A DNA stretch of 64,000 bases from Treponemataceae bacterium (GCA_963678065.2 CAXXVZ010000003.1:1248001-1312000); one strand, 5' to 3'; counted from the first letter of the stretch, positions 4,645 through 55,379 are shown. Program-made: numbers and translations. The notes: a model not told the origin generated them from the letters alone.

Positions 4645-4701
4645 GGACCGGAATTGTGCCTAGTATCCTATTGCATAAACATGACACGAAGGAGGATCGG
4701 A

Positions 4702-6263: not shown

Positions 6264-6279
6264 GGTATGAATTTCGGGC

Positions 6280-35028: not shown

Positions 35029-35820
35029 ATGAGCACTTCGAGTTGTGTATTCGATTTTCGGGACAGCACTGTCCTCGTCACAGGGGCGTCGGGAGGCCTC
35101 GGGGCGGGCATCTGCCGCGTCTTCGCCGAGGCGGGCGCGCGGCTCGCGATTCATTACCATTCGGGCCGCGAGCGCGCAGAGGCTCTGGCGGCCACCCTCC
35201 CCCACCCCGAACGCCACATTCTCGTATGCGCCGAGGCGGGGGATGAATCCTCGGTCGCGGCATGCATGGAGCGCGTGGCCGAGGCCCTTGAAAGCGATCA
35301 TCTCGACGTTCTCATCAACAACGCGGGGATCTATCCGGTCGCCCCCCTCGAGAAAATCACGGAAGCATCGTGGCGCGAGGTTCTCGACGCCAGCCTCACG
35401 GCGGCCCACCTTTTCACGCGGTCCGCCCTTCGACTCATGGGCAGCGGCTCATCGATCGTCAATGTGGCCTCGATCGAGGCCTACAGGCCCGCGGCGGGTC
35501 ACGCCCACTATGCCGCGGCTAAGGCCGCCCTTATCCAGTACACGAAATCGACGGCCCTCGAGCTCGGCCCCAAGGGCATACGGGCCAATTCCATATCGCC
35601 GGGGCTCGTGTGGCGCGAGGGCCTCGAGGAAGCGTGGCCCGAAGGCTACCGGCGCTACGTCCAGGTCGCTCCTCTCGGGAGGACTGCTTTGCCCGAGGAA
35701 GTCGGCGCGGCCTGCCTCTTCCTCGCTTCAGGCGCCGCCTCCTTCATCACGGGCGCAGACCTCGCGGTGGATGGAGGGACGAGCGTGGTGGCTGCGCAGG
35801 ATCTTTTCAGACCTGTCTGA
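35029..35820 (+). CDS. SDR family NAD(P)-dependent oxidoreductase
   Basis: TGASGGLG, NNAG, NVAS, YAAAK, NSISPG, VDGG. Confidence 0.9.
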   Translation: MSTSSCVFDFRDSTVLVTGASGGLGAGICRVFAEAGARLAIHYHSGRERAEALAATLPHPERHILVCAEAGDESSVAACMERVAEALESDHLDVLINNAGIYPVAPLEKITEASWREVLDASLTAAHLFTRSALRLMGSGSSIVNVASIEAYRPAAGHAHYAAAKAALIQYTKSTALELGPKGIRANSISPGLVWREGLEEAWPEGYRRYVQVAPLGRTALPEEVGAACLFLASGAASFITGADLAVDGGTSVVAAQDLFRPV

Positions 35821-35865
35821 GCGCCGCCGTGGCGGGCGGGCTCAGGCAGGTCCCGCGCAAGCCTC

Positions 35866-37134
35866 TTATGCCCGCGCAAAGAGGAGGGCCGCGCGGCGGC
35901 GGGCCTCCCCGAGAACTTCCTCCTCTCCCTCGATCCGCCCCTTCCGCATGAGGACGGCGCCTGCGCAGATCGTGGTGTCCACCGACGCGCCCGATCCTGC
36001 GTACACGAGATTGGAGGCCAGGTCGTGGCAGGGCGTCATGGCGGCCCGCCTGAGGTCGATGAGGAGGATGTCGGCCGTCGCTCCTGCCTCGATCCTGCCG
36101 CCGCCTGTCTCAAAGAGCTCGTGACCCCTCGTCGAGGCAGCGTCGAGGATCTCGTTCACGGGCAGACGCCGGGAGTCCCGATAGTGCTGTTTCTGGAGCA
36201 GTCCCGCGATCTTCATGTCCGAAAAGAGATCCAGCGAGTTGTTCGAGGCCGCCCCGTCCGTGCCGAGGAGGACGCGGATGCCTCTCTTCCTCGCCGCCTC
36301 ATAGTCGAAGGCGGGCCCCGAGGCGAGCTTCATGTTGGAGACAGGGTTGTGGGCCACCGTGACTCCCCGCGCGGCGAGGATGTCGAAGTCCCTTTCGTCC
36401 AGCCACAGACAATGCGCGGCGATGGTCCTGGGCCCAAGGGCTCCGAGGGAGTCGAGGTAGGCCGCGGGCGACAGCCCCGTCCTCTTGCGGCACTCCCTGT
36501 CCTCCTCCTCGGTCTCGGCGAGGTGGAGCTGGAGGAAAAGTCCGCGCTCGCGGGAGAGTTCTCCGAGGAACCGGAGGCTCTCGCTCGCGGTCGCGTAGAC
36601 CGAGTGCGCGGCGAGGCAGAAGCGCGACAGAGACCCGCAGTCGGGCCGGGCGTCGAGGAAAGACAGGCAGGCAGCCCGCTGCTCAGCCGCCCTCCCCTCG
36701 TCGAGCCCATCGATGAGCGCGTAGGAGAGGATGAAGCGCATCCCCGAATCGCGGGCCGCGCGCGCCTGGGCCTCAGGGTAGATATACATATCGCAGCAGA
36801 CCGTCGTGCCGCTCTTCGCCATCTCGAGCGCGGCGAGGCGCATACCCCAGTAAACGTCTTCCTCCGTCATCCGGGCCTCGCGGGGCCATACGGCCTCCCG
36901 CAGCCAGGGCAAAAGTTCCATATCCTCGGCCACGCCGCGCAGAAGGGTCATGGCGGAATGGGCGTGGGCGTTCACGAGCGAAGGGATGGCCGCCATTCCC
37001 CGGGCGTCGATGACCTCGAGCCCCCCGGGCAGAGAGTCCTCTATCCGCGGCTCCAGGCGGGTTATGCGGTCGCCTTCTATGAGAATATCGGCCTCTGCGC
37101 CGCCGATGAGCGCGCTCCGTATCAGGATGCCCAT
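35866..37134 (-). CDS. mtaD: Amidohydrolase, MTA/SAH/5'-deoxyadenosine deaminase-like
   Basis: NAHAHSAMTLLRG, DMY, LHLAET..E, AAHC, HNPVSNMKLASG, GTDGAASNNSLD. Confidence 0.78.
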   Translation of the reverse strand: MGILIRSALIGGAEADILIEGDRITRLEPRIEDSLPGGLEVIDARGMAAIPSLVNAHAHSAMTLLRGVAEDMELLPWLREAVWPREARMTEEDVYWGMRLAALEMAKSGTTVCCDMYIYPEAQARAARDSGMRFILSYALIDGLDEGRAAEQRAACLSFLDARPDCGSLSRFCLAAHSVYATASESLRFLGELSRERGLFLQLHLAETEEEDRECRKRTGLSPAAYLDSLGALGPRTIAAHCLWLDERDFDILAARGVTVAHNPVSNMKLASGPAFDYEAARKRGIRVLLGTDGAASNNSLDLFSDMKIAGLLQKQHYRDSRRLPVNEILDAASTRGHELFETGGGRIEAGATADILLIDLRRAAMTPCHDLASNLVYAGSGASVDTTICAGAVLMRKGRIEGEEEVLGEARRRAALLFARA

Positions 37135-37152
37135 GATTTCCCCTTTTTCCGC

Positions 37153-37971
37153 CTACGAGGCGAGTTCGATTATCCGGCGAATGAGGGCAGAGAACTCGGG
37201 ACGGCGACGCGCCGAAATCTCGAGGACTTCCTCGCTCGTGATGGGCTGATCGAGCATTCCGGCGCCCATGTTCGTGATGCACGATATGCCGAGCGTCCTG
37301 AGTCCGCAGTGGACGGCGGCGATGGCTTCGGGCACCGTCGACATGCCGACGGCGTCCGCGCCCAGGATGCGTGCCATCCTGATTTCGGCGGGCGTTTCGA
37401 AGCTGGGGCCGAGGAACCACGCGTAAACGCCCTCCCGCAGGCCGATTCCCAGCTCATCTCCCGCTCGCCGGGCCAGGGCGCGGAGCGCGGGATCGTAAAC
37501 GCGGGACATGTCGGGGAAGCGGGGCCCGAGACTGTCGTCGTTCGGTCCGACGAGGGGATTCCTGCCCGCGAGGTTGACGTGATCGCGTATGATCATGAAA
37601 TCCCCGGGAGCGTAGTCGGAATTCACTCCTCCCGCCGCGTTCGTCAGAACGAGACACTTTACGCCGAGGAGCCGGAAGGTCCGCACGGGGAAGGTCACGC
37701 GATCGAGGGGATGCCCTTCGTAGCAGTGGAATCGTCCCTGCATCAGGAGGATTGGTTTCCCGGCGAGGCGGCCTGCCACGAGGCGGCCGGCATGTCCGGG
37801 CGCAGTCGACGCGGGAAAGCCGGGTATCGACGTGTAGGGTATGACGACGGGAGACTCGACCTCGTCGGCGAGGCCCCCGAGACCGGAGCCGAGAACGAGG
37901 GCCATGTCCGGCACCTCGCGTATTCTGGAGCGGATATAGTCGGCCGCCACCTGAATTTCTTCCTGAGACAT
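37153..37971 (-). CDS. punA: Purine-nucleoside phosphorylase (trimeric, inosine/guanosine type)
   Basis: LGSGLG, GHAG, QGRFHCYEG, TNAAGG, GPSFETPAE, VGMSTVPE, CITN. Confidence 0.9.
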   Translation of the reverse strand: MSQEEIQVAADYIRSRIREVPDMALVLGSGLGGLADEVESPVVIPYTSIPGFPASTAPGHAGRLVAGRLAGKPILLMQGRFHCYEGHPLDRVTFPVRTFRLLGVKCLVLTNAAGGVNSDYAPGDFMIIRDHVNLAGRNPLVGPNDDSLGPRFPDMSRVYDPALRALARRAGDELGIGLREGVYAWFLGPSFETPAEIRMARILGADAVGMSTVPEAIAAVHCGLRTLGISCITNMGAGMLDQPITSEEVLEISARRRPEFSALIRRIIELAS

Positions 37972-37985
37972 GTTCCCTCCGCAGT

Positions 37986-38026
37986 AAAAGCCGCCCCAAA
38001 GGCTTTTTTTTAGTCTTTGGGGCGGC
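37986..38026 (-). terminator. Hairpin or terminator between the BMP gene and PNP
   Basis: GCCGCCCCAAAG (37990-38001) and CTTTGGGGCGGC (38015-38026) form a perfect 12-bp inverted repeat, followed by TTTT on the minus strand. Confidence 0.6.
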
Positions 38027-38101
38027 GTGATTCGTGTCGCCCTGGGGCGCAGATCCGGGCGATGCCCAGCGCTGATGCCGCCGGACACCACCCGATGTGG
38101 G

Positions 38102-39133
38102 TCACTTCTTGATGCCGAGCTCGGCGAGAGTCGCGGGGACTTTCACTTTGCCGGAGGCGATGTCCGTTTTGGCCTTGGACACCGCGCTCTTCACGTCCGC
38201 CGGGACGATGCTGTCGTGCTGGTGGAAGGGAGCGATGTCGATCGCGCCTTCCGCGATGCCGAAGACGCGGTTCTGCCCGCCCTTGAGCTTCCCGTTGACG
38301 AGATCCTTGATCGCGAGATATGCCGACATGGTCGTACCTTTGAGGGCGGAGGTGAGAACGTAGGCCGGGGCCGCGGCGTTCTGATCGACGTCGGCGCCCA
38401 TCGCGAAGATCTTCCGCTCGCGGGCAGCGTCGATGACGCCCATGCCGGTGAGCCCGGCGATCTGGAGGACGATGTCCGCGCCCTGATCGATGAGGGCGAT
38501 CGTCGCTTCCTTGCCCTTGGCGGGGTCGCCGAAGGTGCCTGTCACGATGTAGCGCACATCGACGGTGGGATTGACCGATTTCGCGCCCGCGATAAAGCCG
38601 GCGAGGTAGCGCTCGACGGGGGGAATGTCCATGCCGAGCACGGCGCCGATCACGTTCTTGTCGTTGAGGAGGGGGGAATTCTTGTAGTATTTCTTCGTCA
38701 TGGAGCCCGCGACGATACCGGCAAGGTAGCCCGCCTCCTGCTCGCGCCAGCTGATACCGATGAGATTCGCGGGAATGTTGTCCCCGTAGGTGTGGTCGAT
38801 GCCGGCGTACATGGTCTGCGGATTGGCCTTGGCCGCTTCCTGGATCTGCTCCACCATGAGGAAACCTACACCGAACACCAGCTTGGCGCCGTCCTCGGCG
38901 AGGCCCGTGAGATTCGGGACATAGTCGGTCATGGCGTGGGCTTCGACGACCTTCACCTTCGCGAGGCCTTCGGCTTCGGCTTTCTTGAGACCGGCCCAGA
39001 CGCCATCGTTGAAGGAACCGTCGCCGAGGCCGTTGGCGTCGGTCGTCATAGCCACGAGTGGCTTGCCCTGGGCGCTTGCGGCTGTCGCGAAGACCGTGGC
39101 GATGATGAGCATCGCGATGAGAACTCTCTTCAT
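38102..39133 (-). CDS. BMP family nucleoside ABC transporter substrate-binding protein
   Basis: GLGDGSFND, GVGF, EQEAGYLAG, GADIV..AGLTGMG, GADVDQ, TSALK. Confidence 0.9.
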   Translation of the reverse strand: MKRVLIAMLIIATVFATAASAQGKPLVAMTTDANGLGDGSFNDGVWAGLKKAEAEGLAKVKVVEAHAMTDYVPNLTGLAEDGAKLVFGVGFLMVEQIQEAAKANPQTMYAGIDHTYGDNIPANLIGISWREQEAGYLAGIVAGSMTKKYYKNSPLLNDKNVIGAVLGMDIPPVERYLAGFIAGAKSVNPTVDVRYIVTGTFGDPAKGKEATIALIDQGADIVLQIAGLTGMGVIDAARERKIFAMGADVDQNAAAPAYVLTSALKGTTMSAYLAIKDLVNGKLKGGQNRVFGIAEGAIDIAPFHQHDSIVPADVKSAVSKAKTDIASGKVKVPATLAELGIKK

Positions 39134-39209
39134 TCTATGCCTCCTTGAACACTAAAAAATTCCCCCGTGGGGGATCTTGGCCGGTCTCCTACGAGCCGGC
39201 GCTGTCGCC

Positions 39210-40169
39210 TCATTCGCCCTCTCCCTCGACAGTGAAGTCCTTCCCTACGGCGGCTGGCGGCCTGGATTTCCGGACGAGGCCGGCCACCGCGATTATCGTC
39301 ATGACGTAGGGGAAAACCAGGAATATCTCGGAGGGAAGTTTCAGGATTCCGATGCTCTGAGCGCGCAGCTGGAGCGCGTCGACGAAACCGAAGAACAGCG
39401 AAGCGAGGAATGCGCCCACAGGGCGCCAGCCTCCGGCGATGTTGGCGGCGAGAGCTATGAAACCGCGGCCGTCCGTCATGCCTTCGGTGAAGGAATTCGA
39501 GTTTTCTATCGAGAGGAAGGCGCCGGCGATGCCACACAGAAGGCCGGAGAAGGCGAGAGCCACGTAGCGCACGCGCACGACGGAACGGCCGAGTGTTTCG
39601 AGCGCCATGGGATGCTCGCCTGAGGCCTCCATGGAGAGGCCGAGGCGGGTCCTCTTGAATATCCAATACCAGACGAAGACAGAGAGCAGCGCGATGTACA
39701 CGATGGGTGTCTGGTTGAAAAACGCGGGCCCGATGAAAGGTATGTCCGAGAGCAAGGGGATGGCGAATTTAAAATCATGGAGGGTGCGCGCGACCGCGTT
39801 CGAGGTGCCTTGCCGCCCGAAGACTACCATCATGAGGTAGCGCGTGAGGCCGAAGGCGAGAATGTTCATGATGGCGCCGGCGACAACGTGGTTTATGTGA
39901 AGGGAGATGGCGGCCCAGGCGAAGAACAGGGAGAAGAGAAGACCTGCGGCCATGCCGGCCGCGAGACCGATCCAGGGGTTGCCCGTCGCCCAGCCCGCCC
40001 AGGCGGCGAAGAAGGCGCCGACGAGCATGACACCCTCCATGGCGATATTCGTGATCCCGCTTCTCTCGCAGATCACGGCTGCGAGGGCGGCGAGGGTCAC
40101 CGGCGTCGCCAGCCGCACCGTGGCCTCGAGGAGTTGGGGCGTAAAAAGAGCGATCAAGAGTCCTGTCAT
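39210..40169 (-). CDS. Nucleoside ABC transporter permease (NupC/NupQ-like)
   Basis: ERSGITNIAMEG, GEHP, GRGFIALAA, FPYVMT. Confidence 0.88.
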   Translation of the reverse strand: MTGLLIALFTPQLLEATVRLATPVTLAALAAVICERSGITNIAMEGVMLVGAFFAAWAGWATGNPWIGLAAGMAAGLLFSLFFAWAAISLHINHVVAGAIMNILAFGLTRYLMMVVFGRQGTSNAVARTLHDFKFAIPLLSDIPFIGPAFFNQTPIVYIALLSVFVWYWIFKRTRLGLSMEASGEHPMALETLGRSVVRVRYVALAFSGLLCGIAGAFLSIENSNSFTEGMTDGRGFIALAANIAGGWRPVGAFLASLFFGFVDALQLRAQSIGILKLPSEIFLVFPYVMTIIAVAGLVRKSRPPAAVGKDFTVEGEGE

Positions 40170-41392
40170 GCCTTGGCTCCTTTCCGGCCGCGGAAGAGGC
40201 GTTCGTAGATCGTCTCGGCGAGCATGAGAAAGAGGATGGTGCCTTTGACAATCTCTATGATCGCGTTGGGCGTCTGAACCGTCCTCGCCATGTATTGGCC
40301 GCCCGAATCGAGAACGCCCCAGAGCAGCGCGGTGAAAATGATGGCTATGGGATCGTTCCTCGCGAGCAGCGCGATGGAAATGCCGTTCCAGCCGTAGCCG
40401 GCGTTGAGGTTCTGGAACATGCGGTGATCGAGACCGAGCACCTGTGTCACTCCCGAAAGCGCCGCGAGCGACCCCGATATGAGGAGGCTCGCCGCGGTTA
40501 TCCACGGAACAAAGATGCCCTGGGTGCGCGCGGCTGCGGGGTTGGCGCCCACCGCGCGCACCTTGAAGCCCAGGTCCGTCTTCTCGAGGATGAAGCGTAC
40601 GAGAAAGCAGGTGGCGATGGCGATGAGGATGCCGATGTGGAGGCGGTAGTTGGCGTTGGGGAGAAAATCCTTGAAAAGGGGGAGGAAAAAGGTCTCCCTG
40701 ATGGGGTCCGTCGTGTAGGGATGGGTGGTGAGAGCAGGATCGCCGCCGTTCGCCCTGATGAACATCGACGAGAGGGTGCGTGTGGCGTAGGCGAACATCA
40801 TCGTCGTGATCACTTCGTGCGCGCCCGTCTTGACCTTGAGTATCGCGGGGATGGCGTTGAGGGCCGCGCCGAAAAGGGCGCCCGCGACGAAGACGAGGGG
40901 TATGGCGACAAGGGGCGGCAGGTTGAGGTTGAGACCGAGCCAGGTCGCGACCATGACGCCAATGTAGTATTGCCCCTCGGCGCCGATGTTGAAGAGGCCT
41001 CCCTTGAACGCGAAGGCGATCGCGAGGCCGGTGAAGATGAGCGGCGTCGCGTTGAGGATGGCGATGTGCCAGTTTTTTACGAGGCCGCCGTAGAAGAGAG
41101 CCTTGTAGGACGCGATGGGGTCGAAGCCCGTGAAGGCCATGATGGCGGCGCCGATGATGAGGGCCGAGCATATGCCAGCGACGGGGATCGCCGCGCGGAC
41201 GAGGATGCGGCGCGCCGCGCGCCCGGTCTCGACCGCTCCGAGGGCGGCAAACCTTTCGATGCATACCAGAATCAGAGCAGCCGCGATGAGCCACAGCCCC
41301 CGGAAATACGAGGCCAGGTACAGAATCGCCCCCGCGACACCGAGGAGCGCCGCGAAAACACCCAGCAGCCGTCTGGGAAGTGGCATTTTCAC
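40166..41392 (-). CDS. Nucleoside ABC transporter permease (NupB/NupP-like)
   Basis: GGLFNIGAEGQ, HEVITTMM, GYGWNGISIALLA. Confidence 0.88.
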   Translation of the reverse strand: MKMPLPRRLLGVFAALLGVAGAILYLASYFRGLWLIAAALILVCIERFAALGAVETGRAARRILVRAAIPVAGICSALIIGAAIMAFTGFDPIASYKALFYGGLVKNWHIAILNATPLIFTGLAIAFAFKGGLFNIGAEGQYYIGVMVATWLGLNLNLPPLVAIPLVFVAGALFGAALNAIPAILKVKTGAHEVITTMMFAYATRTLSSMFIRANGGDPALTTHPYTTDPIRETFFLPLFKDFLPNANYRLHIGILIAIATCFLVRFILEKTDLGFKVRAVGANPAAARTQGIFVPWITAASLLISGSLAALSGVTQVLGLDHRMFQNLNAGYGWNGISIALLARNDPIAIIFTALLWGVLDSGGQYMARTVQTPNAIIEIVKGTILFLMLAETIYERLFRGRKGAKA

Positions 41393-42933
41393 GATGCGCT
41401 CCTTTCCGCCTTGCCGCGTATCATGTACTCGCCGACTTCCACTACGCTCGTGCGGGAGATGGCGCTCTCGAAGACGATCTCGCCTCCGTGGAGGACTGCG
41501 ACGCGGTCGGAGAGGGTGAAGATTTCCTCGAGTTCCATAGAGACGAGCAGAATGGCCGCGTTCCGCTCTTTGAGTTCGAGTATGCGTCGGTAGACGTACT
41601 CGATGGCTCCGACGTCGAGGCCCCGCGTCGGCTGAGATATGAGGAGGAAGGCGGGATCGCGCGAGAACTCCCGCGCGAGGATGACTTTCTGCTGATTCCC
41701 GCCCGAAAGCGTCGACGCGTGGGCCTCCGGTCCGGCCGCCCTGATGTCGTAGCCCTCCATGAGCCGCCCGGCCTGGGCCCGCATGGCCACAAAATCGAGA
41801 AAACCGCCGCGGCAGAGCGGCGGACGGTCGCTCCGTCCGAGCGCGAGGTTCTCCTCCACCGAGAAGGACAGGACGAGCCCTGAACCGCGGCGGTCCTGGG
41901 GCACATAACCCATGCCTTCGTCCATACGCCGCCTGACATCCCAGCGGGAAACATCCCTGCCCTTGAAAAGGACGCGCCCCGAATCAGGCGCCCGCAGACC
42001 GACGAGGGCCTCGCAGAGCTCGCTCTGGCCGTTGCCTTCGACGCCAGCGATGCCCAGTATCTCTCCGGGGCCGACGCCGAGGCTCGCCGCCTTGAGTGCG
42101 GAAAGGCCGCGGGAATTCCTCACGGAGAGCCTTTCGACGCGCAGGATCGGCTCCGGCGTCGGCTTGGCCGCGGGCCGCTCGACATCCAGGACGACCTCCC
42201 GGCCCACCATGAGCTTCGCGAGCTCGGCTGAGCTCGCCTCCGCCGTGCGGCGCTCGCCCTTCAGCTCGCCCTTGCGCAGAATGTAGACCCGCCCGGAAAG
42301 GTGCCGGACTTCCTCGAGTTTGTGCGTGATGATTATGATCGAGGTCCCATCCGCGGCGAGGCGCCGGAGGACGGCGAACAGCTCTTCCACCTCGCGCGGC
42401 GTGAGAACCGCCGTCGGCTCGTCGAGTATGAGAACCCGCGCCGAGCGGTAGAGCGCCTTGAGTATCTCGACGCGCTGCTGGAGTCCCACGGAAAGATCCT
42501 CGAGGCGGGCGTCGGGGTCCACGGCGAGGCCGTAGCGGTCGGAGAGCTCGACGACTCTCTGTCTGGCCCTCTTGTAGAGTACATGTCCGAGGCGGACAGG
42601 CTCGTCGCCGAGAATTATGTTCTGGGTGACGCTGAGCGTGGGGACGAGCATGAAATGCTGGTGCACCATGCCCAGCCCCCTGGATATGGCGTCCCGGGGC
42701 GAGGAGAAGCTCACGGGCTTTCCGTCGAGCAGTATCTCGCCGGAAGTCGGCTTGTAGAGGCCGAAGAGTATGTTCATGAGCGTGGTCTTGCCCGCGCCGT
42801 TCTCGCCGAGGAAGGCGATGATCTCTCCAGGGTAGAGTTTCACGGATATGTCGCGGTTCGCGACCACCCTCGAGAATGCTTTCGTGATATTGCGTGTCTC
42901 AAGGACAGGCGATATCCCTGCCTGCGTCCTCAT
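41389..42933 (-). CDS. Nucleoside ABC transporter ATP-binding protein
   Basis: GENGAGKTT, MVHQHFMLV, DEPTAVLTP, LSGGNQQK, QPTRGLD. Confidence 0.92.
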   Translation of the reverse strand: MRTQAGISPVLETRNITKAFSRVVANRDISVKLYPGEIIAFLGENGAGKTTLMNILFGLYKPTSGEILLDGKPVSFSSPRDAISRGLGMVHQHFMLVPTLSVTQNIILGDEPVRLGHVLYKRARQRVVELSDRYGLAVDPDARLEDLSVGLQQRVEILKALYRSARVLILDEPTAVLTPREVEELFAVLRRLAADGTSIIIITHKLEEVRHLSGRVYILRKGELKGERRTAEASSAELAKLMVGREVVLDVERPAAKPTPEPILRVERLSVRNSRGLSALKAASLGVGPGEILGIAGVEGNGQSELCEALVGLRAPDSGRVLFKGRDVSRWDVRRRMDEGMGYVPQDRRGSGLVLSFSVEENLALGRSDRPPLCRGGFLDFVAMRAQAGRLMEGYDIRAAGPEAHASTLSGGNQQKVILAREFSRDPAFLLISQPTRGLDVGAIEYVYRRILELKERNAAILLVSMELEEIFTLSDRVAVLHGGEIVFESAISRTSVVEVGEYMIRGKAERSAS

Positions 42934-42936
42934 CCC

Positions 42937-43998
42937 TCAGCTCCCGGCCAGCGTCGAGAGGGCGGGGCCGAAGGGCGGATAGGCTACGCCGCGTTCGGTG
43001 ACGATGGCGGTTATGAGGTCGGCGTCAGTGACGTCGAAGGCGGGGTTGCAGACCTTCACGCCAGCAGGAGCCATGCGCCGCGCATACCATTTTTCGGTGA
43101 CTTCCTCGGCCGGCCTCTGTTCGATGCGGATATTTTCGCCCGAAGCGCAGCCGAAGTCGATCGTCGAAAAGGGCGCGTGGATGTAAAAAGGAATCCCGTA
43201 GTGCCGCGCGAGGATAGCCACCCCCGAGGTGCCTATCTTGTTCGCGGCGTCCCCGTTCGCGGCCACGCGGTCGCAGCCGACGAGAACTGCCTGGACGAGG
43301 CCGCTCTTCATGACGATCGAGGCCATGTTGTCGCAGATGAGCGTCACGTCGATTCCCGCCTGCATGAGCTCCCAGGCAGTCAGGCGCGCGCCTTGGAGGA
43401 GGGGGCGCGTCTCGTCGGCGTAGACCTTGAAGCCGTAACCCCGCTCGGCGCCGAGGTATATCGGGGCGAGGGCCGTACCATAGCGCGCGGTCGCGATCGC
43501 CCCCGCGTTGCAGTGCGTGAGGAGCCCCCATCCTCTTCCAAGGAGGGTGAGCGAGTTTTCGCCTATTCGTCGGCAGGTCTCTTCGTCGTCGTCCCTGATC
43601 GCCTCGGCCTCGAGCATCAAGGCTTTCTTCGCTGCGTCCGGGCTCTCGCCCTCCAGGCAAAGAAGTTTCGCCTCCATCCTGTCGAGAGCCCAGAAGAGGT
43701 TGACCGCCGTCGGCCGCGAAGAGGCGAGGTAGGCCTTGGCCGCGCGGAACTCCGCGAGGAGAGAGGCGAAGTCGCCCGCGGGAAAGTCGCGGACAGCGAG
43801 ATAGACGCCGTATGCCGCGGCTATGCCTATGGCGGGTGCGCCCCTCACTTTCAGTTCGTATATGGCCTCCCATATTTCCCTCTGGGTCTTGAGCCTGAGG
43901 AACGCGACTTCGTTCGGCAGGAGGGTCTGGTCGAGGATCACGAGAGATCCGTCGTCATCGTCGAGCCTCACCGGCTCCGGGCCTTTGATTTCACTCAT
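42937..43998 (-). CDS. mtnA: S-methyl-5-thioribose-1-phosphate isomerase (also 5-deoxyribose-1-P isomerase family)
   Basis: LDQTLLP, VRGAPAIG, SRPTAVNL, LTHCNAG, DETRPLLQGARLTAWEL, ANKIGT, NPAFDVT. Confidence 0.93.
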   Translation of the reverse strand: MSEIKGPEPVRLDDDDGSLVILDQTLLPNEVAFLRLKTQREIWEAIYELKVRGAPAIGIAAAYGVYLAVRDFPAGDFASLLAEFRAAKAYLASSRPTAVNLFWALDRMEAKLLCLEGESPDAAKKALMLEAEAIRDDDEETCRRIGENSLTLLGRGWGLLTHCNAGAIATARYGTALAPIYLGAERGYGFKVYADETRPLLQGARLTAWELMQAGIDVTLICDNMASIVMKSGLVQAVLVGCDRVAANGDAANKIGTSGVAILARHYGIPFYIHAPFSTIDFGCASGENIRIEQRPAEEVTEKWYARRMAPAGVKVCNPAFDVTDADLITAIVTERGVAYPPFGPALSTLAGS

Positions 43999-44978
43999 CG
44001 CGCGTACCTCTCATTCGTGCCGCCAGCCAGCGGCCCTTCTTTTTCATCCGGCACCCCGAGCAGAGCCTCCGCGGTCGGGCGATCGGTGACCAGACCGTTG
44101 ATCACGCCGCCGCGCAGGGCGCCGAGAATGGTGGCCAGCTTCCCCGGCCCGAAGGCCATGGCGATCACGTGCGGCAATCGCCGTATACTCTCCCACTCGA
44201 GGGAGACCGTCCGGTCGGCGAAGGACATGGGCACATACCTTCCCGCAGCGTCGTAATACCGCATGAGGATGTCGCCCACAGCTCCCTTCGCATTGAGCTC
44301 CTCGAGCTGTTCGGCGCCGATGTAGCCCGTCTTCATGATACTCGAATCCCGGGTGACGCCGCCAAGCCCGACGAAGGCCAGATCGACTTTCGCCGCGTTT
44401 TCGAGCGCCCTTCCTATGGCGGGTTCCTTGATCATCATCTCCTTGACCCGCCCGCTCCGCACGAGGACGGGCATGGGGATGCTCTCGATCGGCACGCCCA
44501 GCTTCTCCGCGAGTGGAGATGATAAGCCATACGGGGTGCTGGGCTCCAGGTAGGTCCCCGCCAACTCATTGATGCGGGAGGGAAGCGAGGCCGGGCGTCT
44601 CACAAAGGGAAGCATCGCGCTCACCGTGGTGCTCCAGGCCACTCCGATCCTGCAACCCGGCGTTATGAGACGCCCAAGAAGCTCGGCGCCCCCCATGCCC
44701 ACGGCTTCCCTGCTCTCCTCCAACGTAGCGCCAGTGGAGACGACGATCGCGGTCTTGAGCCCATAGCGCTGCTCAAGCCGGAGGCCGAGCGCGAAGAGTT
44801 CCGGAAGCGGTTTCTTGACCGTTATCTGTACAAGTCCCTCCTCGCGGGCCCTCTTGAGCATCCTCGTCACGGCGACGCGGGAGAGTCCCATCTTCGCGGC
44901 GACCTCCTCCTGGCTTAAGCCCTCGATGTAATACAGATTCGCGATCACCGTGAGAGCCTCATCCGCGTATCCGCCCAT
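43995..44978 (-). CDS. SorC/DeoR family sugar-phosphate-binding transcriptional regulator
   Basis: LYYIEGLSQEEVA..MGLSRVAVTRML..AREEGLVQI HTH; GAVGDI, GLVTD. Confidence 0.88.
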   Translation of the reverse strand: MGGYADEALTVIANLYYIEGLSQEEVAAKMGLSRVAVTRMLKRAREEGLVQITVKKPLPELFALGLRLEQRYGLKTAIVVSTGATLEESREAVGMGGAELLGRLITPGCRIGVAWSTTVSAMLPFVRRPASLPSRINELAGTYLEPSTPYGLSSPLAEKLGVPIESIPMPVLVRSGRVKEMMIKEPAIGRALENAAKVDLAFVGLGGVTRDSSIMKTGYIGAEQLEELNAKGAVGDILMRYYDAAGRYVPMSFADRTVSLEWESIRRLPHVIAMAFGPGKLATILGALRGGVINGLVTDRPTAEALLGVPDEKEGPLAGGTNERYAR

Positions 44979-44989
44979 TCCGCCACCTC

Positions 44990-46135
44990 TCACAAAGATT
45001 CGAGCAAAGCGAGGAAATGCCTGGCGTTTTCCGCGAGGTCCGCGCTCCGGCGATGGAGTCCGCCACCGATAAGGAGGATGAAGTCCTTTCCGTAGACATC
45101 GAGCATCTCCCTGGCGCGGTCTGTCGTCATGCCCCCGCCCGGCGCGGGGAAAATGGGCTTGATATCTCCCATCGCCTCTCGTGAGGCCCGGGCGATGCCG
45201 AGGCACTCCTCGCGGGTGAAGGCGAAACGCCCGCCGAAATTCGGATACACAGTGGCGTCGGCTCCCGCAAGCCGCATGAGGCCGCCGTAGAGCGCGGCGT
45301 GGCTGAAGCCGCTCTCCGGGGAAGTCACGAACGAGCCTCCGAACGAGGGGTGCGCCATGATGGGCAGCCCGACTGAGTCGTCGTCGGCGATGAGGCGCAT
45401 CGCGTCGAAACCGACGAGGGCCGGGCAAATAAGGAGAGCCCCCGCCCCGAGTTCTCTGGCCCGCCGCGCAGAGGGCAGGAGCCTGTCCGCCCTCGCGGTG
45501 ATGTTGGGCATGTAGACGCTTCTCCGTCCGGTCTCGCGGTTCGCCCTCTCCACAGCCTCGACGCAGCGCGCGACCCTCTCCTCGAAGGGACAGAAGACCT
45601 GGTCGGCGATGCCGTGGTCGTCCTTGATGAGGTCGATGCCCCCGAGGGCGAATCGGTATGCCTGGTCGGCCAGCTCCGCGGGGGACAAGCCCATGGGCTT
45701 GAGCGCGGTGCACAGGAGGGGGCGGGAGTCCTGGCCGAGGAGGGCCCGAAGGCCGGACCGGCCGAAGCGGGGTCCGCGGAACCGGCGGAGGATGGATTCG
45801 GGGAGCGTCATACGCTCGACCTTGATGCCCGGCTTTATGCTGATGTTCCCGTAGACAACATTGAGAAGCTGAACGAGGTCCGGCCCGGCGACCTCCGCGG
45901 CGAAGCTGATCCTCGCGCGGTAAAGGCCCGGTCGGGAAGGCTCGAGGAGCTCGACCTTCCCGACTATTCCGTCTCTGATGGGGCCCTCCGGCACGAGATC
46001 CGCCGGAAACTCGACCGTCTGCTCCAGACAGATATCCTCCGCTTTGGCCCGGGCCTCGGCCTCGTCGCCTGCAAGGAGATAGGTGACGGCGAAGCGCTCC
46101 CCCCCGAGAATTCCGGACAGATGATCGCCCGCCAT
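44990..46135 (-). CDS. RuBisCO-like protein (form IV), Rhodospirillum rubrum / deep-YkrW type (MTRu-1-P 1,3-isomerase-like)
   Basis: EQTVE, YGNISI, ALKPMGLS, GGIDLIKDDHGIADQ, AHPS, GADATVYPNFGGRF, PAPGGG, LIGGGL. KDDH replaces the KDDE of carboxylating RuBisCO. Confidence 0.88.
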   Translation of the reverse strand: MAGDHLSGILGGERFAVTYLLAGDEAEARAKAEDICLEQTVEFPADLVPEGPIRDGIVGKVELLEPSRPGLYRARISFAAEVAGPDLVQLLNVVYGNISIKPGIKVERMTLPESILRRFRGPRFGRSGLRALLGQDSRPLLCTALKPMGLSPAELADQAYRFALGGIDLIKDDHGIADQVFCPFEERVARCVEAVERANRETGRRSVYMPNITARADRLLPSARRARELGAGALLICPALVGFDAMRLIADDDSVGLPIMAHPSFGGSFVTSPESGFSHAALYGGLMRLAGADATVYPNFGGRFAFTREECLGIARASREAMGDIKPIFPAPGGGMTTDRAREMLDVYGKDFILLIGGGLHRRSADLAENARHFLALLESL

Positions 46136-47142
46136 CAGAGGGCCTCGGCTTTGGCCGCGCTGTGGACCGCCTCGATGCGCTGGGCCGCGAGTTCCGAATC
46201 GTCGATGCCGAAGCTCATGCCGGTCAGACTCTCGACCTTCGAGACGAGAGCCGAGGCGTCGAGTCCGTATTCTCTCATCAAATACCCCTTGGAGCCGCCG
46301 TGGGCGAAGCTGTCCTGTAGGCCCATGCGGATAAGGCGCTTTCCGATGCCCTTTTCCGCGATAATCTCGGCCACTTCGGCGCCGAGACCGCCTATGACGC
46401 TGTGATTCTCCATTGTAATGACACCGTAGCGCGGCTTGCACAGAGCCTCCTCGAGGGCCGCGTCGCCGGAGGGCTTGTGCGTCGACACATGGAGGTGCTG
46501 GATCGAGAGGCCCCTTCTGCGCAGCGAGGCGGTGGCGCGCATCGCCTCCTCGGTGGAAATACCCGCCGTGACGATGCTGATGTCGGAGCCGACGGACAGA
46601 ACCCGCGACTTTCCCGCGACGAAGGGCTCTTCCCGGGGGAAGAGCCGGGGGAGCTCGCCGCGCAGCATGCGGATGTAGACCGGCCCTTGCGCATCGAGAA
46701 CGGGATCGAGGACGGTCTCGACCTCGGTGGCGTCTCCCACCTCGAAGACTGTCATGTTCGGAACCGCGCGCATGACGGCGATGTCCTCGATAGCCTGATG
46801 GGTCGCCCCCCCGGGAGTGGTTATCCCTGGAAGAAAGCCGAAAAACTTGACGGGCAGATTGGAATAGGCCACCGAGCTCACGATCTGATTGAGCGCCTGC
46901 CGGTAGATGAAAACCGCGAATGTGTGGATGAGCGGTATGAAGCCCTCGCGGGCGAGCCCCGCCGCGAAACTCACCATGTTCTGCTCGGCGATGCCCATGG
47001 AGAAAAAACGCTCCGGATAGGCTTCCTTGAACTCGGCTATCTCGGTGGAGCCCGTCAAGTCCGCGGAGAGCACGACGACGCGCGGCTTGTCCGCGGCCCA
47101 CGAGACGAGATTCCGCGCGTGCACCTTGCTGAGGATTTCCAC
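46135..47142 (-). CDS. Transketolase-like ThDP enzyme, C-terminal (pyrimidine-binding) subunit
   Basis: SADL..S, FSMGIAEQNM, FAVF..R, GGATHQAIED, GPVYIR, ENHSVIGGLG. Confidence 0.88.
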   Translation of the reverse strand: MEILSKVHARNLVSWAADKPRVVVLSADLTGSTEIAEFKEAYPERFFSMGIAEQNMVSFAAGLAREGFIPLIHTFAVFIYRQALNQIVSSVAYSNLPVKFFGFLPGITTPGGATHQAIEDIAVMRAVPNMTVFEVGDATEVETVLDPVLDAQGPVYIRMLRGELPRLFPREEPFVAGKSRVLSVGSDISIVTAGISTEEAMRATASLRRRGLSIQHLHVSTHKPSGDAALEEALCKPRYGVITMENHSVIGGLGAEVAEIIAEKGIGKRLIRMGLQDSFAHGGSKGYLMREYGLDASALVSKVESLTGMSFGIDDSELAAQRIEAVHSAAKAEAL

Positions 47143-47145
47143 GGT

Positions 47146-48093
47146 CTACTCCTTTTCCGCGCGGCGCTTCATCTCCGCCTCGTAAAACTTCGCATACTCC
47201 TTTCGCTCCCCGGACGAGGCGAAACGAAGGTAATGGAACTTGGGCCGGCGCGCGTCGAGGATGCCAAGGCCCCGACATGGGTCCGTGCGGCAGAGGACGA
47301 AGGTGGGCCTGCCATCGGGCTTTCGGCCGCAGGCGGCGTCGATGGCGAAGGGATCGTGCCCGTCCACGACAGAGGCGTGCGCGCCGAAGGATTCGATTCG
47401 CGCATCGAGGGGCTCGATCCCCATGACGTCCTTCATCTCGCCGTCGCACTGCTGACCGTTCACGTCGACGCAGACGATCATGTTGTCGAGTTTATAGAAG
47501 GACATCGTCTGAATGGCCTCCCATGTCTGCCCCTCCTGGAATTCGCCGTCGGAGAGGAAAACGACTACCCTACCCCTCTCGCGCTTCAGTTTTTTGGCGA
47601 GGGCTATCCCCGCAGCCTGGCTCAAGGTCTGCGCGAGAGCCCCGCCCATCATCTCGAAACCGGGAGAATGCTCGGCGCCTATCATCTCGACCGTGCTGCC
47701 GTCTTTATTGAACTGGGCGAGTCCCTCGGGAGCCATCCTGCCCGTCTCAACGAGGGTGGCGTAGAGAACGAGGGCGTAGTGGGCCGGACTCAGGAAGAAG
47801 CGGTCATCGTCCGCCTTTCCGGGGCCATTGTAGCCCGCACCTGAGAGGGACCGGCCGCGTCCCTTGCCTGGCACAGCGCTGAAAGGCGACGGAACCAGGG
47901 GAGCGATGCTTGGCCCCAGGCGCATGACCTTCAGATAGAGAGTGGAAAGGATCTCCGCCGCGGAGCAAGCCTGGCTCATGTAGCCACCGTCGTTGGCGAG
48001 CGTGTGCTCCAGCACTCGCAGCCTGATTCCGCGCGCGGCGCGCGAGACATCGTCGATCCATCCGCTGGAGGGCGCGCCCCCGGGAACTGCCAT
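47146..48093 (-). CDS. Transketolase-like ThDP enzyme, N-terminal (diphosphate-binding) subunit, divergent
   Basis: DRFFLSPAHYA, SDGEFQEGQTWEA...DVNGQQCDG ThDP motif, VDGHD. Confidence 0.85.
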   Translation of the reverse strand: MAVPGGAPSSGWIDDVSRAARGIRLRVLEHTLANDGGYMSQACSAAEILSTLYLKVMRLGPSIAPLVPSPFSAVPGKGRGRSLSGAGYNGPGKADDDRFFLSPAHYALVLYATLVETGRMAPEGLAQFNKDGSTVEMIGAEHSPGFEMMGGALAQTLSQAAGIALAKKLKRERGRVVVFLSDGEFQEGQTWEAIQTMSFYKLDNMIVCVDVNGQQCDGEMKDVMGIEPLDARIESFGAHASVVDGHDPFAIDAACGRKPDGRPTFVLCRTDPCRGLGILDARRPKFHYLRFASSGERKEYAKFYEAEMKRRAEKE

Positions 48094-48173
48094 GAATAGC
48101 CTCCGACCTCGGGGACCGCCTTAAAAATCAAGCGTTTTTCATCGGTCCGCCGGCTGAAGAATATGCTTACTGG

Positions 48174-48228
48174 ACTATATGACGGGATCGAAAATCTGTC
48201 AAATTGTTTATCACGGAACTTTTGTTCA
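48174..48228 (-). promoter_or_regulatory. Sigma70 promoter of the transketolase-RLP operon with an upstream GAAC-N4-GTTC palindrome
   Basis: Minus strand TTGACA (48197-48202)-N17-TATAGT (48174-48179); GAACTTTTGTTC at 48216-48227. Confidence 0.65.
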
Positions 48229-48879
48229 GTTCAGTCCGAGCACGATCCCGCAGACCGCCTCCACGGAGCAGCCCCACGCGATTATGCCGCCCCGATGTCC
48301 GGCCATACAGATCGCGCCCTCTTCGGGGCGGCCGTTCTCGACGAATATGCGCCGTATCTCCCCGGCCATGGCAGGCGTCCCGTACGCGACATTTTCGCGC
48401 GTGCGCCTTTGCGCGTCCGGCCAGCCCGACCAGAGAGCTTCGCTGTGCACATGCAGGACAGCGAGGATTTCCGTCGACAACTCATAGAACGCTGCGTGCG
48501 TCAGACTCTCCGAAGAAGCCCGGCAAAGGCCGGCGCAATCCAGTCGGTTCCCCCGGATATCCCAGTCGGAGACATATGAATACGCTTCGGGCCCCGGATC
48601 GATCAAATGCCCTGTCTGGCTCCCCGTGATCAGGAAACCCTCGTGATCCGGCCCATCGGCCTCCCCGCAGCCCGGTATGCACATCCGCTTGCTGAGATTC
48701 CCGTAACCGATGCCGTCCGGCCCGATGCCGATGAGCCCGCGACTCCACATCGCCCTGCGGACGGGGCGCAACTCCGCTATCATCTCTTCGGAGACGCATT
48801 CCTGCCTTCTCCAGACACACTCGAACTTGATGACCCCTTCGTTCGCGTTCCTCGCGGGGTCAGCGTAATCGGGCATCAT
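48226..48879 (-). CDS. Class II aldolase/adducin family protein
   Basis: GNLS.R, FLITGS, SSESLTH, VLHVHS, YGTP, GH; GGAGG RBS. Confidence 0.78.
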   Translation of the reverse strand: MMPDYADPARNANEGVIKFECVWRRQECVSEEMIAELRPVRRAMWSRGLIGIGPDGIGYGNLSKRMCIPGCGEADGPDHEGFLITGSQTGHLIDPGPEAYSYVSDWDIRGNRLDCAGLCRASSESLTHAAFYELSTEILAVLHVHSEALWSGWPDAQRRTRENVAYGTPAMAGEIRRIFVENGRPEEGAICMAGHRGGIIAWGCSVEAVCGIVLGLN

Positions 48880-49007
48880 CCCTCCACTGAACGTATGTTC
48901 ATTTGACAACATTAGAACACCATTTCATGATAACGGTCAATCCAGGGAAAAACACGATGGGCGATACTCTCGTCGTCCCACACACTATCCCCGGAAACGG
49001 AGGATTC

Positions 49008-50291
49008 ATGTTCAAGAAACAGCTTCCCATCGCCAAAGCGCTTGCCCTCATCATCTTCATCGGGTTCATCGCGCTGCCGGCCATGCAGGCCCAGGAAATG
49101 CCCCGGGTGGATCAGTCCATCGAGGCGATCCGTTCCGAGGAGTACGGGGCCTTCATCAACGAGGAATTCGGTGTCGCCTTCAAGCCGATCGTCGGAAAGG
49201 AGGACTTCCTCGCCGCCATCGCGATCTCGACCGGCGCCGCGGTCGGTTCGCTCGAGCCCGCCACGACAGCAGACGGGCCCTTCGACTCTCTGGCCGCTGT
49301 CTCCATCGCGCTCAAGGCCGCGAATATGAAGGAGCTCGCCTACAGCTATCCTGCGGAGAAAGTCGGGAAAAACCTCGCCCGCGCAGGGTTCGGCTCCCTG
49401 GGGCTCGACGCCCGCTCTGCGCAGGAGCTCGCCGCCGCCGTCGACACGGGACTGATTCCACCCGCGCTCTACGCCACATTCGATCCCAAGGCCGCACCGG
49501 GCGCGGACCTGGCGAACAGCCTCGTGGGCGGAGTCCTCTCCGCGAGAGGTCTCTACAAGCACTATATCGGCTTTGTGCGCGAGATCGACATCTACGCAAA
49601 GGTAAGCGACGCATTCAGGCGCTCCAGCATCATAAAAGCGCCGGAGCTTCGCGCCATCGTCGATTCGGCCCTCAGGCAGAACCTCGTGACGGGCTACAAC
49701 CTCAAAGATTCCCGCTACGACCCGCATTTCATCGACGCGCTGACCCTCACCTACGGACACTCGGACCTCGCACACGCGATCCAGCTCCTCGGACTCCTCA
49801 AGAGCGAGAGCATCGACGCCAAGGTTCAGCTCGAACCGAAGACCTCCGCCTTCGTCTTCATGAAGGAATGGGGCGATCCGGGTCCGTCGAACGAGGACTA
49901 CGAGGTTGTCCGGATCGAGAACGGCAACTATATCGAATACGCCAGGGAATACGACATATCTTTCGAGTTCAGGATGGTACAGGACAAAGAGCGCTTCCAA
50001 CCCCTCATCTACGCCTACGCGAAGAAGAACCAGAAGAATCAGGCCGGCCTGCTGATTCAATCCTGGTGGCAGCCGCTCTATCATTCCATGACGACCATGG
50101 ACGGCTACCTCGTAATCACGAACCAGCTCATCGCCAAAGGGCCCTACTACGCGCAGTCCTTCTCGCTCAACGAGCAATCGGCCGCGATAATTCAAGGCTT
50201 CAAGTCGATCGACCCGAGTCTGGCCGTCAAAACCTATCAGTTCTGGGTGGACGAGCCGTTCTTCCGCTATCTTCAGGGAATGGCAAAGTAG
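49008..50291 (+). CDS. Hypothetical exported protein
   Basis: 427-aa ORF with GGAGG RBS, host-like codon usage and a signal peptide ending MQAQ; upstream TTGACA-N17-CATGAT. Confidence 0.75.
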   Translation: MFKKQLPIAKALALIIFIGFIALPAMQAQEMPRVDQSIEAIRSEEYGAFINEEFGVAFKPIVGKEDFLAAIAISTGAAVGSLEPATTADGPFDSLAAVSIALKAANMKELAYSYPAEKVGKNLARAGFGSLGLDARSAQELAAAVDTGLIPPALYATFDPKAAPGADLANSLVGGVLSARGLYKHYIGFVREIDIYAKVSDAFRRSSIIKAPELRAIVDSALRQNLVTGYNLKDSRYDPHFIDALTLTYGHSDLAHAIQLLGLLKSESIDAKVQLEPKTSAFVFMKEWGDPGPSNEDYEVVRIENGNYIEYAREYDISFEFRMVQDKERFQPLIYAYAKKNQKNQAGLLIQSWWQPLYHSMTTMDGYLVITNQLIAKGPYYAQSFSLNEQSAAIIQGFKSIDPSLAVKTYQFWVDEPFFRYLQGMAK

Positions 50292-54401: not shown

Positions 54402-54403
54402 GA

Positions 54404-55378: not shown

Positions 55379-55379
55379 G

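Follow-up and report, generated by a model that had tools for sequence, protein, structure and literature searches.

The minus strand of a 64,000-nucleotide stretch of DNA from a Treponemataceae bacterium (GCA_963678065.2 CAXXVZ010000003.1:1248001-1312000; hereafter the window) carries at positions 35866-48093 a set of eleven co-oriented genes, in which a RuBisCO-like protein (RLP) is joined to the two separately encoded halves, TktN and TktC, of a remodelled thiamine diphosphate (ThDP) enzyme of the transketolase (TK) type. Cells that use S-adenosylmethionine (SAM) must dispose of 5'-methylthioadenosine (MTA) as well as 5'-deoxyadenosine, and the oxygen-independent routes known to us are the MTA-isoprenoid shunt, which employs an RLP and a cupin, and the dihydroxyacetone phosphate (DHAP) shunt, which employs an aldolase. 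Comparisons of sequences, trees and gene neighborhoods indicate that the RLP and the remodelled ThDP enzyme together make up a third oxygen-independent arrangement. The operon in the window likely serves the oxygen-independent breakdown of the sugar of imported nucleosides, chiefly MTA and 5'-deoxyadenosine.

The genes were delimited by open reading frame (ORF) listing, translation, and scans against Pfam and NCBIfam. The resulting families agree with the names proposed in an earlier note on this stretch, which had been made from the sequence alone and had described the same eleven co-oriented, mostly abutting genes. From TktN to the deaminase, the genes are as follows:

47146-48093, minus strand: TktN, the ThDP/Mg-binding half of the divergent transketolase-like enzyme (PF00456, 72.2 bits)
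46135-47142, minus strand: TktC, the other half of that enzyme, pyrimidine-binding and C-terminal (PF02779, 113.8 bits; PF02780, 57.9 bits)
44990-46135, minus strand: RLP of the Rhodospirillum rubrum type (DeepYkr-like), a predicted 5-substituted ribulose-1-phosphate 1,3-isomerase (PF00016, 98.4 bits)
43995-44978, minus strand: SorC/DeoR-family regulator with a helix-turn-helix and a sugar-phosphate-binding domain (PF04198, 194 bits)
42937-43998, minus strand: MtnA, S-methyl-5-thioribose-1-phosphate isomerase (NF004326, 453 bits)
41389-42933, minus strand: ATP-binding cassette (ABC) transporter ATPase with two ATP-binding domains (PF00005, two stretches)
40166-41392, minus strand: ABC permease 1 (PF02653)
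39210-40169, minus strand: ABC permease 2 (PF02653)
38102-39133, minus strand: BMP/PnrA-like substrate-binding lipoprotein, a predicted purine-nucleoside receptor (PF02608, 196.9 bits)
37153-37971, minus strand: purine nucleoside phosphorylase (PNP) of the trimeric inosine/guanosine (PunA) type (NF006054, 387.4 bits)
35866-37134, minus strand: MtaD/DadD-like amidohydrolase, a predicted 5'-substituted adenosine deaminase (PF01979)

At seven of the ten junctions the genes overlap or stand 3-11 nt apart (in the same order +3, -1, +11, -4, +3, -4, -4, +76, +130, and +18 nt), and the stop of TktC and the start of the RLP have one base in common (TGATG). The start of the PNP was placed at the ATG at 37971 rather than the GTG at 38091 because of the better family fit. 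The GC content at third codon positions (GC3) of the genes is 0.79-0.85.

The RLP has the RuBisCO large-subunit catalytic domain without the full set of carboxylase residues: KPK is changed to KPM within an ALKPMG motif, and KDDE to KDDH within an IKDDHG motif. The second change gives a K171-D-D-H174 sequence, the histidine of which is invariant in 26 homologues. The protein scores below the cut-offs of the NCBIfam models for form III and form I-III RuBisCO. Its closest solved structure is 3qfw_A (281.8 bits, E 8.4e-83), which we take to be RLP1 of Rhodopseudomonas palustris and which has the KDDHG motif in common with it; the scores against the MtnW enolase 2zvi and the Chlorobium-type RLP 1ykw are 187.9 and 151.4 bits, respectively. 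In a quick maximum-likelihood tree (104 rows, LG+G4, SH-aLRT support only, three distant RLP/RuBisCO outgroups), all 101 RLPs, including the window RLP and 19 cupin-linked RLPs, fell into one clade (support 100) apart from the outgroups, in a sample that is query-biased, with long outgroup branches, an uncertain rooting, and the characterised RLPs not present as named rows. Sixteen alphaproteobacterial cupin-linked RLPs form one long-stemmed subclade (support 100, stem 1.21) nested within the TK-linked diversity, and the window RLP clusters with relatives from the same family and one Treponemataceae metagenome-assembled genome (support 98). Between 61 TK-linked and 19 cupin-linked RLPs, 66 alignment columns are identical at ≥90% conservation, and no column is fixed differently between the two sets. 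By these measures the RLP has its place among the cupin-linked RLPs of the R. rubrum type and not among the enolases, the Photo-type RLPs or true RuBisCO, in line with the class that the earlier note had assigned to it. The window RLP has six residues between HPxxxG and RLAGAD that are absent from the alphaproteobacterial cupin-linked clade and from 3qfw; this loop was rejected as a marker of specificity, since three Chloroflexota cupin-linked RLPs carry the long form. More than 5,500 database proteins match the RLP at E <= 1e-20, many of them 60-72% identical, from Spirochaetota, Chloroflexota, Holophaga, and others.

The partners of this RLP clade were surveyed in the best 80 of at least 593 RLP-relative stretches in GTDB species representatives, with genes counted by tblastn with defined queries, the window proteins among them. 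In 56 of the 80 loci the gene directly upstream of the RLP is TktC, with TktN found as well in 51 of these, and a Cupin_2 gene lies upstream of the RLP in three, all of them from Chloroflexota; 15 loci have upstream room and neither a TK nor a cupin there, and six are too short to tell. No cupin was found in any of the 56 TK-linked loci. To judge from the record titles, the TK-linked loci span at least ten phyla, the groups being Spirochaetota, Chloroflexota, Bacillota, Pseudomonadota, Planctomycetota, Myxococcota, Methylomirabilota, Elusimicrobiota, Verrucomicrobiota, Deinococcota, and candidate division FCPU426. Culturable carriers of the module named in the titles include Alkalispirochaeta alkalica DSM 8900, Lamprocystis purpurea DSM 4197, Alicyclobacillus sp. 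ALC3, and a Pseudovibrio sp. An RLP was detected (E <= 1e-60) in 18 of 401 sampled Alphaproteobacteria: two have TktN-TktC upstream of it (46-51% identity), and 16 have a cupin directly downstream (36-43%), as PMC5893883 describes for R. palustris. Both partners also occur as fusions. Of 33 longer RLP homologues, 19 consist of Cupin_2 and RLP (precomputed Pfam domains; two confirmed by BLAST), and four are RLP-TktN-TktC fusions of diatom type, including Cyclotella atomus, Thalassiosira exigua, and one EukProt entry. The four are 51-52% identical to the window in TktN and 48-52% identical in TktC, the alignment of the T. exigua fusion (P0150) covering only the first 67 TktC residues, and the GGYLSQ, AEHSPG, and SDGE motifs are present in all of them. 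In this one RLP clade, then, either the cupin or the TK-like enzyme serves as the partner: the two exclude each other, and each is in some cases fused to the RLP. It is mainly because they swap in this way that the TK-like enzyme is assigned to the step following the RLP. The TktN-TktC-RLP linkage, for which the earlier note had proposed a neighborhood survey, extends over 56 of 80 loci, at least ten phyla, and the diatom fusions. Two further long RLP homologues, P0121 with a ThiF domain and P0123 with a SorC sugar-binding domain, may be either true fusions or read-through gene calls.

The genes accompanying this core vary. Among the 56 TK-linked loci, MtnA occurs in 14, an MtnK-like kinase in eight, a DeoC/LsrF-like aldolase in seven, a SorC regulator in six, and a Cys/Met pyridoxal-phosphate (PLP) enzyme in three. 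The RLP is present in four of 41 related genomes, with the window genome (G000) counted among the four. In two of the relatives, G010 and G018, a Cys/Met PLP gene, whose top NCBIfam match is the O-acetylhomoserine/O-acetylserine (OAH/OAS) sulfhydrylase subfamily (below cut-off), is followed by TktN-TktC-RLP-SorC-MtnA, and a conserved PNP-deaminase pair lies on a different contig. Standing ahead of the module in the closest relatives (L119 2594-7014 in G010) are a sulfonate/taurine-type ABC permease, an M20-type amidohydrolase, and an O-acetylhomoserine-sulfhydrylase-like gene; by its gene families this is a sulfur-scavenging neighborhood, and the window is without it. The third relative, G022, has TktN-TktC-RLP-SorC on a short contig and permease-BMP-PNP on another. 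No MTAP above cut-off was found in G010, G018, or G022. In a Chloroflexota locus (L031), a PNP-family gene and a deaminase accompany TktN-TktC-RLP-SorC. What is conserved, then, is a TktN-TktC-RLP core; the feeders of sugar phosphate differ between loci, and the nucleoside front end seen in the window is a rare variant. The DeoC/LsrF-like aldolase was seen in L015, L034, L035 (upstream of TktN), L018, L020, L041, and L048, and in L015, L034, and L035 it is accompanied by a short-chain dehydrogenase/reductase (SDR) and a class II aldolase. Its recurrence hints at a second, thiolase-type splitting of the same C5 phosphate.

To characterize the ThDP enzyme, 52 RLP-linked TktN and 57 RLP-linked TktC sequences were aligned with the other TKs of the window genome (5.27 Mb, 5 contigs, 99.94% complete), and residues were mapped through HMMER alignments to human TK and to the split TK of Carboxydothermus hydrogenoformans. 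Of the 15 Transketolase_N matches in the genome, the one full-length TK scores 439.5 bits, the eleven split TKs score 141-193 bits, and the RLP-linked TktN scores only 70.4 bits; two further matches have 50.7 and 31.2 bits. Both halves of the RLP-linked enzyme fall below the cut-offs of the transketolase model NF004559 (TktN 154.3 and TktC 217.6 bits; cut-off 488) and of the 1-deoxy-D-xylulose 5-phosphate synthase (DXP synthase, DXS) model TIGR00204 (19.2 and 171.8 bits; cut-off 465.95), and the closest solved relative of TktC is the split-TK C chain 6yaj, with DXS structures also matching. The enzyme resembles canonical and split TKs (C. hydrogenoformans 6yak/6yaj) and DXP synthase in its fold, its ThDP and Mg ligands, and its catalytic Glu, and the division into two genes has its counterpart in the split TKs. 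The Mg ligands D182 and N212 are present in all 52 TktN, and the catalytic Glu53 of TktC is kept in 98%.

Comparison with the canonical and split TKs (human numbering) revealed that (i) His37 is replaced by Tyr38 of TktN, which is Tyr in 51 of the 52 rows, the remaining row being gapped; (ii) His110 is replaced by Ile138, which is Ile in 52 of 52; (iii) the GDG motif is changed to SDG in 51 of 52; and (iv) His416 and Asp424 are replaced by Leu104 and Gly111 of TktC, within a GFLPGxxTPGGxTHQ signature that is near-invariant in the 57 TktC, the His of THQ being present in all 57. Human His77 aligns with TktN His105, which is kept in 42 of 52, and the equivalent of His258 (TktN His287) is kept in 52 of 52. 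In TktN, about 27 extra residues follow residue 60, His142, Tyr288, and Arg290 are newly invariant, and Cys43 (51/52) and Cys216 (50/52) are near-invariant; TktC has a conserved C-terminal tail. By contrast, all four active-site histidines are kept in each of the genome's twelve other TKs, eleven split and one full-length. Transketolase structures (yeast, human) have a hydrogen bond between His110 (His103 in yeast) and the C1 hydroxyl of the donor ketose, and the aligned Ile fits a donor whose C1 bears H or S-methyl, not OH. Judged by these residues, the RLP-linked ThDP enzyme is not a canonical transketolase; its cofactor residues are kept, and it looks competent but altered. The TK expansion of this genome is unusually large, with one full-length TK and eleven split TktN/TktC pairs besides the RLP-linked pair, and the substrate-channel residues of the expanded TKs differ among themselves (e.g., C1:38148-40223, C5:569489-570463, and C2:241721-242602).

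The genome has one copy of the RLP, and MtnA is its sole IF-2B family gene. MtnA scores above its cut-offs (NF004326, 453 vs 271; TIGR00512, 419.4 vs 279), as does the PNP on the inosine/guanosine models (NF006054, 387.4 vs 218; TIGR01700, 341.2 vs 293.35); the structure matches of the PNP in the PDB are all PNPs. The closest solved relatives of the deaminase are 4dyk/4gbd, 4f0r (deposited as "5-methylthioadenosine/S-adenosylhomocysteine deaminase"), and TM0936, and 4gbd is presumably the MTA deaminase of Pseudomonas aeruginosa. The deaminase is below all NCBIfam equivalog cut-offs (NF005557, 264 vs 522; NF012037, 208 vs 779). A canonical Add adenosine deaminase is encoded elsewhere in the genome, so plain adenosine does not require the MtaD-like enzyme.

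In genome-wide scans, no MtnK, MtnC, or acireductone dioxygenase (MtnD) was found, and the MTAP/MtnP model TIGR01694 matches only the PNP of the operon, at about 76 bits against a cut-off of 274.85. No MtnB scored above cut-off, the class II aldolases other than the one next to the operon (AraD, a FucA-like protein, and an aldolase-domain protein) all falling below it; neither DeoB phosphopentomutase nor AhcY was found. An RLP-type cupin is absent from the operon and was not detected in the genome below E 1e-3 by tblastn with five RLP-adjacent cupins. The lack of a cupin, MtnC, and MtnD, which the earlier note had remarked on, therefore holds across the near-complete genome. With no MtnK and no MTAP, the PNP of the operon is the evident supplier of MtnA; with none of the canonical MtnB, MtnC, and MtnD steps, the product of MtnA is left without a canonical methionine-salvage continuation here.

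We consider it moderately probable that the operon converts 5'-substituted purine nucleosides to a 1-substituted xylulose-5-phosphate, which the TK-like enzyme cleaves to glyceraldehyde-3-phosphate and a C2 unit. The BMP-type ABC system would import the nucleoside, the MtaD-like deaminase would convert the adenine nucleoside to its inosine form, and the PNP would release hypoxanthine and a 5-substituted ribose-1-phosphate, from which MtnA would form the corresponding ribulose-1-phosphate. The RLP would then shift the carbonyl to give a 1-substituted xylulose-5-phosphate, that is, 1-methylthio-xylulose-5-phosphate from MTA or DXP from the 5-deoxy sugar. TktN/TktC, in place of the cupin methylsulfurylase, would attack at C2 and cleave the C2-C3 bond, yielding free glyceraldehyde-3-phosphate and a ThDP-bound C2 unit, whose fate could be release as an aldehyde, transfer, or, once methanethiol is lost, release in acetyl form. 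The operon would stay repressed by the SorC/DeoR protein as long as no sugar-phosphate intermediate is present.

Several observations weigh against this pathway. The PNP is of the ordinary inosine/guanosine type and scores far below the MTAP cut-off; on these model scores, it is the weakest link in a reading based on SAM by-products. The BMP transporter family binds, as far as the family name tells, ordinary purine nucleosides, and with no DeoB, plain ribose-1-phosphate also needs an outlet. The front end is rare in the TK-linked loci, with a deaminase in one of 56 (L031), a PNP-family gene in two, and a BMP gene in one, and in the close relatives the front-end genes lie apart from the module. 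As to the enzyme itself, the roles assigned to the replaced histidines are carried over from canonical transketolases, and the equivalents of the phosphate-binding His416 and Asp424 are changed, so that binding of a xylulose-5-phosphate-like substrate is not assured. Finally, LuxS is present (C2:43784-44227 and C5:441838-442612 are the LuxS/nucleosidase entries), its match lying inside a 526-aa open frame, and the sole MTA/S-adenosylhomocysteine (SAH) nucleosidase candidate, a Pfs-like ORF, is just under its cut-off (66.7 vs 73.8). A nucleosidase route for endogenous MTA and SAH thus probably exists alongside the operon, in which case the operon would not be the sole means of MTA disposal and may serve mainly imported nucleosides.

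A bolder version of the cleavage step is possible, though doubtful: the TK-like enzyme would be a phosphoketolase-like ThDP lyase in which the enamine expels methanethiol to leave acetyl-ThDP, and the TK-linked form would be the main and older partner of the RLP. If so, MTA would be converted to glyceraldehyde-3-phosphate, an acetyl unit, and methanethiol without oxygen or glutathione, the methanethiol would feed methionine resynthesis, and DXP would give acetaldehyde.

A rival reading, already named in the earlier note, is ordinary purine-nucleoside catabolism that bypasses phosphopentomutase, with plain ribose-1-phosphate from inosine or guanosine passing through ribulose-1-phosphate (by MtnA) to xylulose-5-phosphate and ribulose-5-phosphate (by the RLP) and on, by way of the split transketolase, to the pentose-phosphate pathway. 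A PunA-type PNP above its inosine/guanosine cut-offs, a BMP/PnrA-like binding protein, and a genome in which no DeoB was matched speak for such a bypass, and PMC6302742 mentions that methionine-salvage enzymes are promiscuous towards ribose derivatives. The plain ribose-1-phosphate alternative is nevertheless disfavoured, and we regard it as unlikely, on the following grounds: the TK-like enzyme is without the equivalents of His110 and His37, and it scores far under the transketolase equivalog cut-offs; the 12 other TKs of the genome keep both histidines and could handle xylulose-5-phosphate; the module is fed elsewhere by MtnK-like kinases (8 of 56 loci) and not by ribokinase; an MtaD-type deaminase is encoded here while the canonical Add is present elsewhere; and a sulfhydrylase-like gene precedes TktN in the relatives.

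It is also conceivable, and rather less probable still, that two unrelated modules abut without common flux, the genes for nucleoside uptake and base salvage having been inserted behind an RLP/TK/MtnA module for another sugar. The separate contig of the PNP-deaminase pair in G010 and G018, where nothing similar follows MtnA, is consistent with such an insertion, as are the occurrence of the front end in only one of the 56 TK-linked loci and the stem-loop with a T-run ahead of the BMP gene, where the gaps widen to 76 and 130 nt. The seam itself argues otherwise, for MtnA and the ABC ATPase are separated by 3 nt and no other promoter-like site was found on the minus strand. Moreover, the genome has no MtnK or MTAP to feed MtnA, which leaves the PNP of the operon as the obvious source, and the Chloroflexota locus L031 has independently joined TktN-TktC-RLP-SorC to a PNP-family gene and a deaminase.

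A role like that of the cupin, in which the TK-like enzyme would form DXP and methanethiol from 1-methylthio-xylulose-5-phosphate and so supply isoprenoid synthesis, is very improbable: the enzyme does hold the genomic position of the cupin, with which it is mutually exclusive, and TktC is about equally like DXS and transketolase (171.8 bits on TIGR00204, with matching DXS structures), but taking off the methylthio group so as to form DXP requires a reduction, for which ThDP chemistry is not known to supply a reductant (the cupin methylsulfurylase uses glutathione), a canonical DXS is encoded elsewhere in the genome (634.6 bits vs 465.95), and TktN reaches only about 19 bits on the DXS model.

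The favoured pathway, in which the TK-like enzyme cleaves the RLP product, shares parts with three known systems. The MTA-isoprenoid shunt of R. rubrum and R. palustris consists of MtnP, MtnA, a DeepYkr RLP, and the cupin methylsulfurylase, as described in PMC5893883. The window resembles it in having MtnA and, for the step predicted to come next, an RLP of that clade (support 100, the KDDHG motif, and the 66 shared columns), and in its oxygen-independent design, from which the canonical MtnB, MtnC, and MtnD steps are missing. It differs in that (i) the operon has no cupin and the remodelled split ThDP enzyme takes the position of the cupin; (ii) entry is through a deaminase and a PunA-type PNP, not MtnP; and (iii) the RLP keeps the six residues absent from the alphaproteobacterial cupin-linked RLPs and 3qfw.

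In the DHAP shunt, MtnK or MtnP and MtnA are followed by the class II aldolase Ald2 (PMC10986504 and PMC5893883). It is similar to the predicted pathway in its logic, by which a 5-substituted ribulose-1-phosphate yields a triose phosphate plus a C2 piece, and in that it can support growth on exogenous 5'-deoxynucleosides. By contrast, the pathway in the window would have an RLP isomerisation before the cleavage and a ThDP-dependent cleaving enzyme, the predicted triose is glyceraldehyde-3-phosphate and not DHAP, and the only nearby gene resembling a class II aldolase is an orphan showing no conservation alongside the module. Deaminase-first routes for MTA and 5'-deoxyadenosine are described in PMC6302742 for P. 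aeruginosa (MTA deaminase and methylthioinosine phosphorylase) and Methanocaldococcus jannaschii (DadD and MtiP), in both of which the phosphorylase is of the MTAP type. The window likewise pairs an MtaD-type amidohydrolase with a phosphorylase, with hypoxanthine and a ribose-1-phosphate derivative as the predicted products, the closest solved relatives of the deaminase are MTA/SAH deaminases, and the PNP-deaminase pair is kept in relatives; its phosphorylase differs in being a PunA-type PNP outside the MTAP family (about 76 vs 274.85 bits).

No description of an RLP-transketolase-like link or route was found in the searchable full-text literature, several key subscription RLP papers lying beyond that coverage, and the word "transketolase" has zero occurrences in PMC5893883, PMC6302742, and the July 2026 review PMC13474568. 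Within that literature the route is thus not described, in keeping with the earlier note, which had called it a candidate new pathway, and as far as the sequence evidence goes the arrangement would be a widespread variant of SAM by-product salvage without oxygen. The TK-linked form is commoner than the characterised cupin form (56 vs 3) in the sample of the 80 nearest RLP loci. Defining the TK-like reaction would add a new ThDP-enzyme activity, would assign a function to hundreds of genes labelled "transketolase" or "RuBisCO large subunit", and would explain the recycling of sulfur or carbon from SAM by-products in many anaerobes. To this the window adds a variant in which the imported substrate would be whole nucleosides and not free sugar.

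Four features lie around or within the operon besides its genes:

48174-48202, minus strand: sigma-70-like promoter TTGACA-17-TATAGT (11/12 matches)
48180-48201, no strand assigned: inverted repeat TGACAGATTTTCGATCCCGTCA (22 nt), a candidate SorC/DeoR operator with a 7-pair stem that overlaps the promoter
39162-39174, minus strand: GC stem-loop followed by a T-run, within the 76-nt gap before the BMP gene
48226-48912, minus strand: orphan class II aldolase-like gene whose membership in the pathway is uncertain (PF00596, 31.2 bits)

The promoter (48202-48174) sits in a 132-nt gap upstream of TktN and is the sole promoter-like site on the minus strand within 35500-49200, where both strands together have two such sites against a shuffle mean of 1.9; the single promoter proposed earlier ahead of the operon thus stands, with no second minus-strand site in this interval. 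The inverted repeat is a candidate operator of the SorC/DeoR regulator, and the stem-loop with its T-run may be an internal attenuator or an mRNA-processing site. The nearest NCBIfam models to the regulator are the Bacillus subtilis-type DeoR and LsrR, both below cut-off, and a SorC gene lies downstream of the RLP also in G010, G018, and G022. Near-identical metatranscriptome contigs (151-264 nt, 0-3 differences), from two runs of one study and in small shares, match the deaminase, PNP/BMP, MtnA/SorC, RLP, TktC/TktN, and the aldolase-like gene; they speak for presence only, not for a transcript, its ends or its level, as DNA carry-over is possible, and the uncovered parts carry no information.

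The aldolase-like gene is co-oriented with the operon, lies directly upstream of its promoter, and has an HVH metal motif. It was set aside as an Ald2, MtnB, or epimerase partner, since neither the 80 loci nor the relatives nor the remainder of the genome yielded a homologue (E 1e-6). The convergent SDR gene at 35059-35820 was considered as a reductase of the aldehyde product and rejected: it encodes a generic SDR, with no tblastn match above 40% identity in the 80 loci or the genome. On the plus strand, divergent from the aldolase-like gene, a 462-aa ORF at 48903-50291 has a GC3 of 0.80 and no Pfam or NCBIfam match. Farther away, 4654-7209 (plus strand) encodes an L-ribulose-5-phosphate 3-epimerase, an L-ribulose-5-phosphate 4-epimerase (AraD), and a Cof-type HAD phosphatase, and has the look of an ascorbate/L-xylulose-type cluster. 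At 52111-55441 (minus strand), a TrpA-like protein (TIGR00262, 122.9 bits) is flanked by a xylulokinase-like FGGY kinase and a ribose-type ABC permease, which are unusual neighbors for a homologue of the tryptophan synthase alpha chain.

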